Source of the DNA: Escherichia phage vB_Eco_F27
Sequence record: OP870146.1
Direction: 5' to 3' (one strand)
Length of the DNA: 64,000 nucleotides
The notes under the pieces are model-generated. The model was not told where the DNA came from. It searched no databases and worked only from the letters and a program-made list of their open reading frames with translations. How positions within the stretch are numbered: the stretch's first letter is position 1; each line of letters starts with the position of its first letter. A program made the translations under genes and the position numbers. Positions 1 to 53,219 of this stretch are shown here, piece by piece.

Positions 1-352
1 TGCCAATAAAACTACGAACAGAATCAGTAAATAAACGGAATCGAATATCATCGCTAGAATAACGAGAAAATTCTTTTTTAATGTTGCCAGCAGAAATTTT
101 AGCATAAGCTGAAGTATTAGAAAGAACAATAACTGTTCCACCATCATATAGCCAATTAACAGCAAAATTAGTTACTGCGGACGATTTACCTGATTGTCTG
201 CCGCCGTCTAAACGAAGTGTACAGTACTGCTTGAGTACGTCTTCAAATGGTGGGGCATAACCGTTCTTACAAATTTCTTCTACTCTAGCATCAGAATGGT
301 GTGTAAAAGCATTCATCAGGGATAGATAAGGTCCAGTTAAAAATGTTCTCAT
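1..352 (-). CDS. hypothetical protein with Walker A-like motif (GGRQSGKSS); 3' end runs off the window
   Basis: ATG at complement 350-352, frame open to position 1; translation begins MRTFLTGPYLSLMNAFTHHSDARVEEICKNGYAPPFEDVLKQYCTLRLDGGRQSGKSSAV; absent from ORF track because no stop lies inside the window. Confidence 0.4.
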   Translation of the reverse strand, partial: MRTFLTGPYLSLMNAFTHHSDARVEEICKNGYAPPFEDVLKQYCTLRLDGGRQSGKSSAVTNFAVNWLYDGGTVIVLSNTSAYAKISAGNIKKEFSRYSSDDIRFRLFTDSVRSFIG

Positions 353-462: not shown

Positions 463-861
463 TTATTTGTAGGTTTTCATCCAATTCTTGAACAAAGCCG
501 CGACGTCTTTCTCTTTAACGTTCAGTTTAATGTCCAACATTTTACCGCCCGCTGCTCTCGTTTGACGAATCTTAGCAGTACCGGTTTCACCATTCCACTC
601 AACATAATATTGCCCAGTGTTCATAGCGATACCGTTGCCAAAGTCTTCGTTATTAGAAGTAGTGAATGCCAACTTCATGGTCTTAGAGACACGGGCCGGC
701 ATGCCTGTCTGAAGGGCATTACGAACGCGAATAACCTGAGGAGTGGCCTGGGTCAGGTTCTCATTCAGTTCTTCGGTGAACTCTTCAGATTCAAACATCG
801 CCAAAAGTTCTTTAGATGCAGGAATTACATTCTCTGCGATAAATTCTTTATATGTTTTCAT
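463..861 (-). CDS. internal head protein-like (capsid-targeting-sequence N-terminus MKTYKEFIAE), 132 aa
   Basis: ORF track; ATG at 859-861 with AAGGAAAC SD; N-terminus matches the T4 IPIII capsid targeting sequence MKTYQEFIAE, which ends in an L/I-x-E prohead protease site. Confidence 0.5.
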   Translation of the reverse strand: MKTYKEFIAENVIPASKELLAMFESEEFTEELNENLTQATPQVIRVRNALQTGMPARVSKTMKLAFTTSNNEDFGNGIAMNTGQYYVEWNGETGTAKIRQTRAAGGKMLDIKLNVKEKDVAALFKNWMKTYK

Positions 862-925: not shown

Positions 926-1186
926 TTAAGCTTTACCGCCAGAAATAATTCCGAAGTTGTTAAAATCGTATCCAATATCGTCAACATCTACTTTAGGACT
1001 TACTACAACATAAGCAATTTCACTACGTTTTGCATAGGTGTTTATTTCTTTACCATCACCACCTAAGAAAGAATACCCATTACGTTTTAATGAGCCAAAG
1101 TCTTCCGCATCACCAATGAAAGCTTTAACTTTAAATTTAGGACCTTTGGCATCTGCTTCAACGATAAATTCTTGATACATTTTCAT
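926..1186 (-). CDS. internal head protein-like (N-terminus MKMYQEFIVE), 86 aa
   Basis: ORF track; ATG 1184-1186 with AAGGAAAA SD; CTS-like N-terminus. Confidence 0.5.
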   Translation of the reverse strand: MKMYQEFIVEADAKGPKFKVKAFIGDAEDFGSLKRNGYSFLGGDGKEINTYAKRSEIAYVVVSPKVDVDDIGYDFNNFGIISGGKA

Positions 1187-1192
1187 TTTTCC

Positions 1193-1390
1193 TTAGTAAA
1201 TTGATTTACCATAGTATTTGTACCAAGTCGGACGTTGAGCAATTTTTTCATCTAAGCGTGCTTGATTTATCGCAATGGACGCTTCGGACGGGTCATAATT
1301 TCCTCCAAGTAGTTGATGAATGTATAGTATCAAAACCCTTGGAGGAAGTAAACAACTATTTTTCTGAAGCGCCTGAAATATATTTTTCAA
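1193..1390 (-). pseudogene. denV: remnant of denV (endonuclease V, pyrimidine dimer glycosylase): C-terminal ~33 codons only
   Basis: Frame translates ...[33 protein letters not shown], matching the T4 DenV C-terminus ([34 protein letters not shown], from memory); no ATG in frame; stops at 1400-1405 upstream; N-terminal 100 codons absent. Confidence 0.5.
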
Positions 1391-1637
1391 GACGTTGTTT
1401 CATTAAAGAGCCGTTCTTAGCGATTTCTTCCGGTTTATCGCACATACGCAACAAGGCTTCGAGCTTAACGATATCGCTGGTACGTTCAAATTTGCGAGTA
1501 TCTATCTTACTAGCAAGTTCAGAAATACGTGCTAATAGACTTTCGGCTTCAACCAAAGCTGCACCTAGCTTAGTTGCAAATGTGTCAGTAGCTTCGTTAA
1601 GAATAGATTCTGATAAAAATTCACTATATGTTTTCAT
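1356..1637 (-). CDS. internal head protein-like (N-terminus [10 protein letters not shown]), 93 aa
   Basis: ORF track trimmed from TTG at 1652 to ATG at 1635-1637; CTS-like N-terminus; overlaps the denV remnant by 35 nt. Confidence 0.5.
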
Positions 1638-2122
1638 ATATACGCTTTCCAAGTTCCTGTTTTAAATGTTGAGATTACGCGTTTCGCGCGATTAGGTGTC
1701 TGACGATACCATTTAGATTGGGCTAGATTTACTGCCGCTTCGTCCCAACGTTTCTGTTGAAGCATACGAAGAGAATTAGTAAAACCGGCAACGCCTGCTA
1801 CGCCCATTTGGAAGACCATATTGACCAATGCACATCGACGAACAGCATCTAAAGAATCATATACCGGTTTAAGTTTAGCATTACCCAAGATTCCGCGAAC
1901 GGCTTTATCAACGTCTTCATTAAATAGCTTTTCAGCCTCATCAAGGGTAATTGTACCGTTGCATTTACGACCGATCATTCTGTCAAGTTCAGCTTTAGCT
2001 ACGGCTAAAGAAGGGTTCTTTGTTACTAAATGGCCTATGCCAATCGTCCAAAAGCCTTCAGTGTCTTTGTATAAAGTCAGTCTAAGACCTTCGTCATTAC
2101 GAAGCATTTCAAATATATTCAT
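1634..2122 (-). CDS. e: lysozyme (endolysin, T4 gene e homolog), 162 aa
   Basis: Translation [32 protein letters not shown]... is near-identical to T4 lysozyme over the full length; ATG 2120-2122 with GGGAGGTA SD. Confidence 0.93.
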
Positions 2123-2156: not shown

Positions 2157-2615
2157 TTATAGGAGGGTAGTGAGCACCTTATATAATGATTTGCCCATTA
2201 CATATTCCCATTGAGAAGGTTTAATTAAAGCGAATGCATCAAATTCAGGAATCTGACGTCCGTCTGGGAATGTATGATAGGAATTACAAACACTGTTTCT
2301 GAATTGCTCGTGCTCTACAGGGATGGTATATAGGAACAGATGAATATTCTTATTGTCTGAGTAATGATGTTCACCTAGGTCTTTCAGGAAGGCAGGGTCA
2401 TATTGTGTAAACCCAGTTTCTTCTTCGCATTCACGAATAGCGGCTTCAATAGGAGATTCGCCAGGTTCGACACGGCCTTTAGGAATATCCCACCGATGAG
2501 CTAATGCACCTTTAGGACGAGAACCAGTTACACGGCCCATGAATAATTCTTTATCTTTTGTCATGAAGATAATACCAGCGGACAACTCTTTCACTTTATT
2601 TTTCTTACTCATCAT
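2157..2615 (-). CDS. nudE: Nudix hydrolase (T4 NudE / e.1 homolog), 152 aa
   Basis: Nudix box GRVEPGESPIEAAIRECEEETGF; position immediately downstream of e as in T4. Confidence 0.8.
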   Translation of the reverse strand: MMSKKNKVKELSAGIIFMTKDKELFMGRVTGSRPKGALAHRWDIPKGRVEPGESPIEAAIRECEEETGFTQYDPAFLKDLGEHHYSDNKNIHLFLYTIPVEHEQFRNSVCNSYHTFPDGRQIPEFDAFALIKPSQWEYVMGKSLYKVLTTLL

Positions 2616-3329: not shown

Positions 3330-4015
3330 TACCAACCTTCCATAGGGAATTCCAGATAAACTTGGGCATTGACACGAATTTCATTGGTAATCTTTTTAAC
3401 TCGGTCTGTATTACGAGATACACGTCCGAACCAACGCCATCCATTACTAATTGCACGAGAACCAGTGTGCCATGTTTGCCAATCAAACTGAAGAAGAGTA
3501 CGATCTGGAGCTTCCCATTTCTCTAGTTCACCTTTTTCAATTTTTTCGAGGACTTCTTTGTGCCACTGGCGATAGATAAGTTCGCCATCAGGAATCTGAC
3601 TGAACTCTGCAGTTCCTGTTGCAAAATGAGTAGGACACACATCAGCGTTAACAAGACCAAGAATATGTTCAGACAAATAGCGAGGATTGTCATAATCAGG
3701 TTGTCCTGCAGTAATAAAATGTTGTCCTGTTGGAATATCTGGGCGTGGTACGTCATCATGGTGATATCCAGGAATAGCAGGGTACCAACCAGGCATCAAC
3801 ATGTGGACTCGTGAATCAAATACTACATCCGAGTCTTTCCAATCGTCAGGGAGATTTTGAATAAAGCTACGAGTAATTGGGCCGCCATTATCAAAAGCAA
3901 AATTCAAATCGCAGTTAAAGAACATAGGCTCGTTTTTAATCTGGTCGTTTTTAATCGCATGAGCAAAACCACCTACTGCACGAGCTTGACTATTAAACAC
4001 TTTAGAACTATTCAT
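3329..4015 (-). CDS. hypothetical protein, 228 aa
   Basis: ORF track; ATG 4013-4015 with GAGGAAAA SD; no motif recognised. Confidence 0.5.
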   Translation of the reverse strand: MNSSKVFNSQARAVGGFAHAIKNDQIKNEPMFFNCDLNFAFDNGGPITRSFIQNLPDDWKDSDVVFDSRVHMLMPGWYPAIPGYHHDDVPRPDIPTGQHFITAGQPDYDNPRYLSEHILGLVNADVCPTHFATGTAEFSQIPDGELIYRQWHKEVLEKIEKGELEKWEAPDRTLLQFDWQTWHTGSRAISNGWRWFGRVSRNTDRVKKITNEIRVNAQVYLEFPMEGW

Positions 4016-10777: not shown

Positions 10778-10854
<77 letters not shown>

Positions 10855-10954
10855 ATGATGCGGCTTTGGGTGTTTCAGTGTTACTCGTTTGTAGGTTCTA
10901 CTTTTAACCCTTATTCGAACAACTTACCTACCTAAGAGCGTACTCACCGCGAAT

Positions 10955-11029
10955 TGGTGGCCCTGGCTGGTTTCGATCCAGCTACCTATCAGTTATGAGC
11001 TGACAGCTCTCCCATTGAGCTACAGGGCC
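10955..11029 (-). tRNA. tRNA with CAU anticodon (elongator Met, or Ile2 if lysidine-modified), 75 nt, CCA encoded
   Basis: Manual cloverleaf: acceptor GGCCCTG/CAGGGCC, D-arm GCTC-AATGGGA-GAGC, anticodon loop CTCATAA, T-arm GCTGG-ATCGAAA-CCAGC; ends resemble E. coli tRNA-Ile2. Confidence 0.85.
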
Positions 11030-50073: not shown

Positions 50074-51588
50074 ATGACTGACATTAAAGTACATTTTCAT
50101 GATTTTAGTCACGTGCGCATTGAATGCGACGAAAGTACGTTTTACGAACTTCGTGACTTTTTTAGCTTTGAAGCCGATGGGTACAAATTCAACCCGCGTT
50201 ACAAATATGGGAACTGGGATGGTAGAATTCGACTTTTAGATTACAATCGTTTGTTACCATATGGACTTGTAGGACAAATAAAAAAGTTCTGTAACAATAT
50301 GAGTTATTCTGTATGGATTGACCCTAAAATCTTTGAGACCGAAGACCTTACCAGGGAAGATTTTGACGCATGGCTTTCTAAACAAGAAATTTATTCCGGC
50401 AATGCCAAAATCGAACCACATTGGTATCAAAAAGATGCAGTATATGAAGGACTAGTTAATCGTCGTAGAATTTTAAACCTTCCGACATCAGCAGGTAAAT
50501 CACTAATCCAAGCACTTTTAGCTCGATATTATCTAGAGAACTATGAAGGTAAAATTCTCATTATTGTCCCTACAACAGCATTGACAACCCAGATGGCTAA
50601 TGATTTTGTTGATTATCGCTTGTTTAGTCATTCGATGATTAAGAAAATTGGCGGTGGCGCTGATAAAGCGGACAAATCTAAAAACGACGCTCCAATTATT
50701 GTTGGCACATGGCAAACGGTAGTTAAGCAGCCTAAAGAATGGTTCTCGCAGTTCGGTATGATGATGAATGATGAATGCCACTTAGCAACAGGCAAAAGTA
50801 TTTCTTCAATCATCTCAGGATTAAATAATTGCATGTTTAAATTCGGTTTATCCGGCTCATTAAGAGACGGAAAAGCCAATGTAATGCAGTACGTAGGTAT
50901 GTTCGGCGAAATCTTCCGTCCTGTTAGCACGTCTAAATTAATGGAAGACGGTCAGGTAACTGAGCTTAAGATTAATAGTATTTTCCTTCGTTATCCAGAC
51001 GAATTCACTGTTAAATTAAAAGGTAAAACATACCAAGAAGAAGTTAAAATTATTACCGGACTAAAACGACGTACAAAGTGGATTGCTCAACTTTCAGTCA
51101 AATTGGCTAAGAAAGACGAGAACGCCTTTGTAATGTTTAAACACGTTACACACGGTAAAGAAATATTTGAAGCTATTAAAGAGCTTGGATACGAAAAAGT
51201 TTATTACGTATCAGGTGAAGTTGATACTGAAACACGTAACGCGCTTAAAGTCATGGCAGAAAATGGTAAAGGCGTTATTATTGTCGCATCATATGGAGTA
51301 TTCTCTACTGGTATTTCAGTAAAGAATCTTCATCATGTTATTTTTGCCCATGGTGTTAAATCAAAAATTATCGTACTTCAAACCGTAGGTCGCGTGCTTC
51401 GTAAGCATGGTTCTAAAGCTGTTGCTACAGTTTGGGATCTCATCGATGACGCAGGTGTAAAACCTAAATCATTAAATACTAAAAAGAAGTATACTCATCT
51501 TAATTACTTGTTAAAACACGGTATTGATCGTATCCAACGTTACGCTGATGAGAAATTTAACTATGTAATGAAAACAATTAATTTATAA
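50074..51588 (+). CDS. uvsW: UvsW DNA/RNA helicase (SF2), 504 aa
   Basis: Walker A PTSAGKS, DECH box (MMMNDECHLA); length as T4 UvsW. Confidence 0.9.
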   Translation: MTDIKVHFHDFSHVRIECDESTFYELRDFFSFEADGYKFNPRYKYGNWDGRIRLLDYNRLLPYGLVGQIKKFCNNMSYSVWIDPKIFETEDLTREDFDAWLSKQEIYSGNAKIEPHWYQKDAVYEGLVNRRRILNLPTSAGKSLIQALLARYYLENYEGKILIIVPTTALTTQMANDFVDYRLFSHSMIKKIGGGADKADKSKNDAPIIVGTWQTVVKQPKEWFSQFGMMMNDECHLATGKSISSIISGLNNCMFKFGLSGSLRDGKANVMQYVGMFGEIFRPVSTSKLMEDGQVTELKINSIFLRYPDEFTVKLKGKTYQEEVKIITGLKRRTKWIAQLSVKLAKKDENAFVMFKHVTHGKEIFEAIKELGYEKVYYVSGEVDTETRNALKVMAENGKGVIIVASYGVFSTGISVKNLHHVIFAHGVKSKIIVLQTVGRVLRKHGSKAVATVWDLIDDAGVKPKSLNTKKKYTHLNYLLKHGIDRIQRYADEKFNYVMKTINL

Positions 51589-52102: not shown

Positions 52103-52327
52103 TTATACAACTCTCATATGCATATCAATGCCCATATCTTTAGAATAAAAATATTCATCAAGATATCCGGCAAATTTTCCTTTAATATAAAGGACGTCTT
52201 CACCACACGGGTGGTCTGCCAGGATACGAATATCCTGACGACGTAGACGATACTTTTCCATTAAGAATTTAATTTCAGTTTCAAATTCTTCGTCATTATT
52301 AAAGGCATCTTCAATTGAATAACGCAT
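52103..52327 (-). CDS. UvsY.-1-like small protein, 74 aa
   Basis: Position immediately downstream of uvsY with overlapping stop/start. Confidence 0.55.
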   Translation of the reverse strand: MRYSIEDAFNNDEEFETEIKFLMEKYRLRRQDIRILADHPCGEDVLYIKGKFAGYLDEYFYSKDMGIDMHMRVV

Positions 52328-52740
52328 TATTGCCCCGCTTCAAATTCTCGCATATCCTGGATATGTTTAAGTGCAAAACTACGAGACTTAACTGCGTCAA
52401 GTGCACCACTACAGAACTCAAGTAAAATTCCCCAGTATTGTAAAGTAGTCTCTATTTTAAGCACATCTTTATCTGCAGCCAGGACAGTTTTCATTTCAGA
52501 TTTCTCGTATCGGTCCATACTGAATTCATCACCGTCACCTCGTCCCGAGTAGTAGTCTAATCTTGCTTTTAGAGCAGTTTTCTTCTGAGTCTCTATACGC
52601 AACATTTCTTTACGAATAAATGAGTGCTTACGTAGCCATTTGCTGTATAACTTAACATTATTCGCTGTCTCATATTGCAACTTTGTTGTATCAATAGCTA
52701 AGTCTGCGTCTAACTCTTCCTGTAAATCTTCCAGCTTCAT
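52327..52740 (-). CDS. uvsY: UvsY recombination mediator protein, 137 aa
   Basis: ORF track trimmed to ATG 52738-52740; MKLEDLQEEL... closely matches T4 UvsY. Confidence 0.88.
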   Translation of the reverse strand: MKLEDLQEELDADLAIDTTKLQYETANNVKLYSKWLRKHSFIRKEMLRIETQKKTALKARLDYYSGRGDGDEFSMDRYEKSEMKTVLAADKDVLKIETTLQYWGILLEFCSGALDAVKSRSFALKHIQDMREFEAGQ

Positions 52741-52820
52741 AATATTCTCTCTTTTAACTAATAATCTCCCGGCTGTATCGGAAGGACCTAAAACCATTAT
52801 ACATAGGTTGCCTTGAAGCA

Positions 52821-53219
52821 TTACACTCTATTGCTTGACGCTAACTGAAGTTTAATTTGTTCAATATCGTCAGGGTTGTCTACGACCGAAAATCTAATCT
52901 CTACTATAACCGTATAGTCATCATATACTGGCGTTACACTTACAGAAAGTTTGTCGATGCGTGGCTCATAGTTACGGACAGCTGCCTGGATATTACGCTC
53001 AATCGTATCGGCTGTAAGTGGTGTCATGTTCTCGAAAAGTTCGTCGACCAAATCACATCCAAATTCAGGGTCGAAGGGGCGTGAGCCTTTTCTAGTTGTC
53101 ACTATGCCAAGAAGACTATTTTTAATAGAACGAAGTCCTACAGAACGAGCAACGTCCTTGTTCCAATCCATACGCATTTCTGGGTCGATATCTGAATAAA
53201 GTTTATTGATATTAGACAT
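52821..53219 (-). CDS. 25: gp25 baseplate wedge subunit, 132 aa
   Basis: Same length as T4 gp25. Confidence 0.9.
   Translation of the reverse strand: MSNINKLYSDIDPEMRMDWNKDVARSVGLRSIKNSLLGIVTTRKGSRPFDPEFGCDLVDELFENMTPLTADTIERNIQAAVRNYEPRIDKLSVSVTPVYDDYTVIVEIRFSVVDNPDDIEQIKLQLASSNRV

Follow-up and report, generated by a model that had tools for sequence, protein, structure and literature searches.

Gene order around denV and extent of the remnant

The window (the whole stretch of DNA that was analysed, 64,000 nucleotides) belongs, as judged from its sequence, to a Mosigvirus, an RB69-like T-even phage; the closest genomes by megablast were G2469, JK42, FL18 and mogra (~98% identity over 24.8 kb), and there was no identical genome among them. 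Every gene in the first 3 kb lies on the minus strand (Table 1). Two of these genes, placed on either side of a remnant of denV, encode proteins of the T4 internal head protein type: both matched internal head protein families and showed the N-terminal leader MK(T/M)YxEFxxE, which resembles the capsid-targeting sequence and would have a capsid-targeting role. The exact 93-aa protein encoded upstream of the remnant was indexed in 1153 blocks of a public collection, and its gene was found directly upstream of an intact denV in HMD-9, Shf125875, AlbertHofmann, G2133, G2469 and Lutter. The gene for the 86-aa protein is the normal downstream neighbour of denV and occupies an equal position in the intact relatives, in which the order is e, internal protein, 58-bp spacer, denV (414 bp) and internal protein.

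Of the native denV, the promoter-like element, the ribosome-binding site and the ATG persist, out of frame with the remnant, a point missed in an earlier note on this DNA. The first of these is described here as promoter-like on two grounds: the depositors of the Lutter record annotated a “promoter” on a sequence identical to the GTTTAC-18 nt-TACTAT element, and we take the element to resemble the T4 early promoters. It was not called in a scan for the sigma-70 consensus. One T is inserted at window position 1355, just upstream of this element, with respect to many relatives.

Two further differences in gene content were observed in the window. The cassette with the 132-aa ORF was present in the Tequatrovirus HMD-9 but not in most Mosigviruses, which have ipII-/ipIII-type genes there; this difference left ~20% of a 1.8-kb query uncovered in other Mosigviruses. 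The cassette of the window is of the HMD-9 type, unlike that of the Mosigvirus carriers of the deletion described below, and the exact 132-aa protein was not on record in a large public collection. At 10778-11029 (minus strand) the window has genes for tRNA-Arg(tct) and tRNA-Met(cat), the only two tRNA genes in it, like G2469; the corresponding region of T2 has nine tRNA genes.

Table 1. Features in the first 3 kb of the window, listed from the highest coordinate down.
Feature	Position	Strand	Basis or remarks
nudE	2615..2157	-	
Lysozyme gene e	2122..1634	-	Pfam Phage_lysozyme
Internal head protein gene, RB69ORF127c-like, 93 aa	1637..1356	-	PHROG 3499 “internal head protein”, E 1e-46
Promoter-like element of denV, kept	1353..1324	-	GTTTAC 1353..1348, 18-nt spacer, TACTAT 1329..1324
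denV ribosome-binding site GGAGG, kept	1306..1302	-	Invariant in the window, the other carriers and the intact relatives
Hybrid direct-repeat copy AATTATGACCCGT, the deletion junction	1300..1288	-	
Native denV ATG (1296..1294) heading a frameshifted 9-codon ORF, MTRPKRPLR-stop	1296..1267	-	Translation and alignment
denV C-terminal remnant	1292..1193	-	Codons 106-137 at 1292..1196, stop at 1195..1193
Internal head protein gene, RB69ORF125c-like, 86 aa, N-terminus MKMYQEFIVE	1186..926	-	PHROG 2667 “internal head protein”
132-aa ORF with internal-protein-like leader MKTYKEFIAE	861..463	-	PHROG 15461, function unknown
vs.8-like gene	Runs off the window start	-	

According to the earlier note, the frame at 1193-1390 encoded the C-terminus of DenV with its aromatic segment WYKYY, the first ~100 codons were gone, the frame had no ATG and stops lay at 1400-1405. 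All of this was borne out. When the whole 64-kb window was searched with DenV by tblastn, one significant match was obtained, at 1321..1196 (E 2e-17 to 4e-18). The translated remnant aligned with residues 96/97-136/137 of T4 endonuclease V (1VAS/2END, E 2e-16 in a phmmer search of PDB) and matched positions 102-138 of the 139 in the profile of PHROG 1183 (“endonuclease V N-glycosylase UV repair enzyme”); the segment WYKYY was present in the alignments with 1VAS, 2END and this profile. Codons 4-105 were absent in alignments with intact relatives. The frame of the remnant is closed upstream by stops at 1405..1403 and 1402..1400, and between 1390 and 1193 it has no ATG or GTG: TTG codons at 1390 and 1333 are the only candidate starts, neither of them with a properly spaced Shine-Dalgarno sequence. 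The residues GGNYD ahead of the remnant are the denV ribosome-binding site and start-codon region read in another frame, and their likeness to RNNYV of DenV is due to the repeat where the deletion occurred and to nothing else. Judging from these alignments, the true DenV-derived coding sequence in the window is codons 106-137. A frameshift able to restore a full-length frame was considered and rejected: 310 bp are physically missing, and the other frames are without N-terminal DenV sequence.

The tblastn search, which the earlier note had proposed as a check, revealed no intact copy and no second denV of any kind in the window, that is, in 64 kb of a genome of roughly 168 kb. FL18, another Mosigvirus, has the denV allele of the window and is 97.9% identical to the window over 24.8 kb; its complete genome, assembled for tblastn, contained the C-terminal remnant and no other denV. 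In a set of 50,697 phage records DenV matched 1123 places in 1119 records (1093 records with at least 80% protein coverage), so that in essence denV is present once per genome. The loss might be compensated elsewhere in the genome by an intact denV or an analogous dimer glycosylase, since more than the window is there to hold it and some relatives have extra denV relics downstream of ipII. We consider this extremely unlikely: the extra copies seen were fragments of an essentially single-copy gene, and neither the window nor the complete genome of FL18 gave a second match. For the part of the genome beyond the window, it is the analogy with FL18 that argues against a second denV.

A 310-bp gap between copies of a short direct repeat

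Alignment of the window with three intact relatives showed a single gap of 310 columns, with flanks otherwise 97-99% identical, and the same was seen in an alignment of nine sequences. The end-points of the gap correspond in the intact genes to a 13-bp imperfect direct repeat, AATTATG[A/T]CCCGT, whose copies are exactly 310 bp apart: the 5' copy, AATTATGAC[C/T]CGT, at gene positions -4..9, overlapping the start codon, and the 3' copy, AATTATGTCCCGT, at 307..319, in codons 103-107. The A of the ATG in the heptamer AATTATG lies at gene position 1 and again at 311. In the denV region of AlbertHofmann, no direct repeat was longer than this one of 13 nt (12/13 matching, spacing 310). The window keeps one hybrid copy, in which the A at 1293 derives from the 5' copy, placing the crossover within CCCGT (1292..1288). 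Deletions in T4 rII are reportedly found between short direct repeats. The denV deletion is like them in having the repeats at both end-points in the progenitor, a single hybrid copy at the junction, with no filler DNA, and a deleted length equal to the spacing of the repeats (310 columns vs. 310), but unlike these laboratory mutants it is a natural polymorphism across two genera.

The deletion takes codons 4-105, including the entire Pfam Pyr_excise domain. Its length is not a multiple of three; the native ATG frame stops after 9 codons, and the remnant lies in another frame.

The earlier note had attributed the loss of the glycosylase to insertion or replacement by accessory genes, and had described the upstream space as filled by an internal-protein-like gene at 1356-1637. 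That gene is present and the glycosylase is lost, its catalytic part being absent; the part of the explanation that did not stand was the cause, since synteny and alignment point to an internal deletion of 310 bp, and the supposed intruder lies in the same place beside intact denV in relatives. The locus is a mosaic, in a variable internal-protein region, the remnant has an internal-protein-like gene on each side, and the one upstream extends to 1356, within the ORF at 1193-1390, all of which could suggest that such genes had been inserted into denV or had replaced its 5' part. Both flanking genes, however, hold identical positions around intact denV in many relatives, and the 310-bp gap is the sole difference from intact relatives, with no extra sequence at the junction; we give insertion or replacement practically no credence.

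The ancestral arrangement was the standard one, with a denV of 414 bp between the two internal-protein genes that follow e, and 310 bp were lost from it between the two imperfect 13-bp repeat copies, leaving one hybrid. Replication slippage or short-homology recombination may have been responsible. Ribosomes starting from the preserved ribosome-binding site and ATG would terminate at the end of 9 codons, and no usable start would be left for the final 32.

Distribution and history of the deleted allele

A 161-nt query spanning the junction gave an unbroken match in 13 phages from GenBank (JM17, FL18, JM10, FL12, FL23, FL44, G8, G4498, BF15, 235Ecol030PP, vB_Eco-B1.1, Phaginator and Shinka) and two pieces 310 bp apart in intact genomes; JM17 and FL18 were 100% identical to the window over the 161 nt. 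A 37-nt junction probe, in which each side of the junction is too short for seeding on the intact gene, matched 14 records, corresponding to 12 distinct phages. Shinka has a variant T junction (ATGTCCCGT) with the same deletion end-points, and all other carriers were identical at the junction. The deletion was also present in an ENA metagenome contig (ERZ27272398 k119_42428; L027). A junction scan of JGI metagenome contigs gave no matches, and in IMG/VR the A-type junction was found only in phage G8 and the T-type in none. The 13 carriers, among roughly 235 records holding the allele family, fall in Mosigvirus and Tequatrovirus, and came from Danish pig faeces, German manure, wastewater and a pig farm in Poland, and US sewage.

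A deletion flanked by repeats is the classic setting for assembly collapse, in which an assembler would have merged the repeat copies of an intact denV. The chance that the allele is such a sequencing or assembly artefact is nevertheless negligible: the 13-bp repeat is below the usual assembly k-mers, the remnant of some carriers has secondary mutations, and the junction recurs in one ENA contig and in 13 GenBank phages that were sequenced independently and come from four countries. The same junction across these phages argues that it was not produced by an assembler.

The treatment of the remnant in GenBank is uneven: it is unannotated, or labelled “endonuclease” or “hypothetical protein”. 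RAST/PHANOTATE called a 46-aa ORF with a TTG start “endonuclease” in JM17, FL18 and vB_Eco-B1.1 (1543-1683 in L005, L011 and L015), and the RefSeq versions of G8 and G4498 have the remnant unannotated. Literature searches found no paper describing this denV allele, and nothing relevant on truncated denV in T-even phages or on T2 without denV.

Identity at the locus differed strongly between neighbouring genes. Across Mosigvirus and Tequatrovirus carriers the lysozyme gene e was 81-83% identical, and the adjoining module 97.5-99.6%; the module of the window, consisting of internal protein, deleted denV and internal protein, was 97.5-98% identical to that of the Tequatrovirus carriers. The sharp change in relatedness falls where e adjoins the first internal-protein gene, about 1637-1700, and marks a cassette exchanged between genera. 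JM10 (Mosigvirus; L009) and FL23 (Tequatrovirus; L016), from the same Danish series of pig-faeces samples, were 81.9% identical in e and 99.6% identical in the module, and have in common an extra 1-nt deletion within the remnant, at a position corresponding to window 1249. These identities, together with the common 1-nt deletion, indicate that the deleted allele was exchanged between genera, a movement that would have taken place by homologous recombination within the near-identical internal protein-denV-internal protein module. In both phages, 2 nt are also inserted near window 1043, within the internal-protein gene downstream.

Substitutions and small insertions in and around the remnant bear on whether the allele of the window descends from the same deletion. 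A G-to-A change at 1266 (Ser to Asn) was found in the window, JM17, FL18, G8, G4498, BF15, 235Ecol030PP, B1.1 and Phaginator; a 55-nt probe with 1266A in the context of the intact gene matched 155 records, none of them perfectly or at 99% identity or more. Since 1266A is common to these carriers and has no perfect match in an intact context, it appears to have arisen after the deletion, and the window allele most likely comes from the same event as those of the carriers. The T insertion at 1355 was present in the window and most carriers, and also in G2133 and Lutter, whose alleles are intact. Position 1212 showed a different pattern: the window has TAT (Tyr) and all other carriers TTT, so that common descent would require either a reversion or recombination over a short tract. 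This TAT and the Shinka junction are compatible with such short tracts or with a deletion that recurs at the repeat. TTT at 1212 (WYKYF) was rejected as a decay mutation, as intact G2133 has TTT. The nearest relative genome-wide, G2469, has an intact denV in which a synonymous change, TAT to TAC, disrupts the 3' repeat.

An independent deletion in the window phage, at a 13-bp repeat acting as a recurrent hotspot, would explain why the window alone among the carriers has the ancestral TAT at 1212. No other direct repeat in the gene is as long, two junction types (A and T) exist, and the nearest module sequence to that of the window is the intact AlbertHofmann allele, with 10 differences. This origin deserves to be weighed but is unlikely: 1266A is common to most carriers and its probe found no perfect match in an intact context, the T insertion at 1355 is common to the window and the carriers, and JM10 and FL23 show the deleted allele moving between genera. 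The window phage is very probably a Mosigvirus with a null denV allele, formed by a 310-bp deletion between direct repeats and inherited from a lineage of the deleted allele that moved between genera.

Functional status of denV and other denV losses

DenV of an intact relative matched PF03013 (Pyr_excise) at residues 1-87, with 52.5 bits vs. a cut-off of 23, and the whole of this segment is deleted in the window. The remnant ORF matched no Pfam family, staying below the gathering score for Pyr_excise. Catalysis by T4 endonuclease V depends on the alpha-amino group of Thr2, as nucleophile, and on Glu23. In the window ATG-ACC-CGT (Met-Thr-Arg) is kept, followed by the frameshift and a stop; codon 23 is absent, and the remnant is not a complete ORF of ~137 aa with its own start. 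With the domain, the catalytic residues and the start codon lost, denV is here a pseudogene, and the remnant cannot encode an active glycosylase. It occupies the denV position of related Mosigvirus and Tequatrovirus genomes and is like T4 endonuclease V (2END, 1VAS; PF03013) in aligning at the C-terminus, including WYKYYGK, but differs from it in that codons 4-105, the Pfam domain and Glu23 are gone and the Thr2 codon stands near the head of the 9-codon ORF.

The remnant might still be expressed with a residual or new function, either as a peptide of 46 or 65 aa initiated at a TTG and containing the WYKYY DNA-binding segment or as a 9-codon minigene, and the conserved promoter-like element, ribosome-binding site and ATG, as well as the 46-aa “endonuclease” called by RAST/PHANOTATE in JM17, FL18 and B1.1, are compatible with this. 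Such a function is very unlikely: the frame is without ATG or GTG, TTG 1333 lies in the promoter spacer with AAGGG just ~2 nt upstream, TTG 1390 falls within the internal-protein gene, and the catalytic residues are absent. JM10 and FL23, moreover, have a frameshift within the remnant, and other carriers have Ser-to-Asn and Ala-to-Asp changes where three aligned intact alleles agree, which is consistent with relaxed constraint.

The phage is therefore predicted to make no pyrimidine-dimer glycosylase, and by analogy its UV sensitivity should be higher, at about the level of a T4 v mutant. It would depend on host photoreactivation and on its own uvsW/uvsY recombination repair; the window has intact copies of uvsW (50074..51588), uvsW.1 and uvsY (52821..52327).

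denV is dispensable, and T-even phages naturally without its function were already known in the 1950s. T4 v (denV) mutants have reportedly been described, and T2 is said to be naturally without the function; like both of these, the window phage would be a T-even phage viable without dimer excision. No DenV homologue was found in T2 (AP018813) in the 20 kb spanning tk-e-tRNAs (55-75 kb). These 20 kb of T2 are without any remnant; in the window, by contrast, the 3' end of the gene survives together with its start codon and promoter-like element. In T2 (L010, 6941-7114 and 7430-7903) denV is absent between e and the vs genes, and the vs.8 homologue is cut to a 57-aa ORF. The product annotations of AP018813 are largely unreliable; an internal-protein-like gene, for example, is labelled “valyl tRNA synthetase modifier”.

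Relics and other defective copies of denV were also seen in further sequences. Phage TU01 (MZ560701; L030, 4642-4770) has a second, divergent denV relic downstream of an ipII-like gene, in addition to an intact denV. Like the denV of the window, this relic is internally deleted and frameshifted and keeps the ribosome-binding site and ATG; it differs in being another, divergent allele in another position, after ipII (presumably the location of denV in T4), and in its junction, a short GGCAAA repeat at which the first 36 codons meet the last few in another frame. Weak 20-aa DenV matches (residues 118-137, E about 1e-4) were obtained downstream of an ipII-type gene in L029 (4449-4508) and L032 (4790-4849), and are possibly relics of denV at the position that we take to be that of T4. 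A different denV allele, in a Logan contig (SRR27755816; L026, about 3380-3395), has a 1-nt deletion near codon 13 (GAACTGACC-ACCAAC), downstream of which the gene caller begins a 121-aa product; either the allele was inactivated independently or the unpolished assembly is in error here.

Given its persistence and its movement between genera, the deletion may have been favoured as a null allele instead of decaying neutrally, in dark enteric niches, through DenV being sensed by or interfering with host defence, or through altered expression of the adjacent genes for injected internal proteins, or the repeat may be a recurrent on/off hotspot for denV; these ideas are speculative and we hold them to be improbable. 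The allele is an ordinary denV pseudogene, already in public genomes, and opens no new biological question. It provides a clean natural case of short-repeat deletion, and also an annotation trap, the 46-aa remnant being labelled as an endonuclease by some pipelines and left unannotated by others. It predicts that phage-encoded excision of UV dimers would be absent in the window phage and in at least 13 sequenced relatives, with a bearing on the UV stability of phage preparations and on environmental survival that is of modest practical value. What makes it mildly notable is the spread of a null allele over two phage genera, inside a near-identical internal protein-denV-internal protein cassette.
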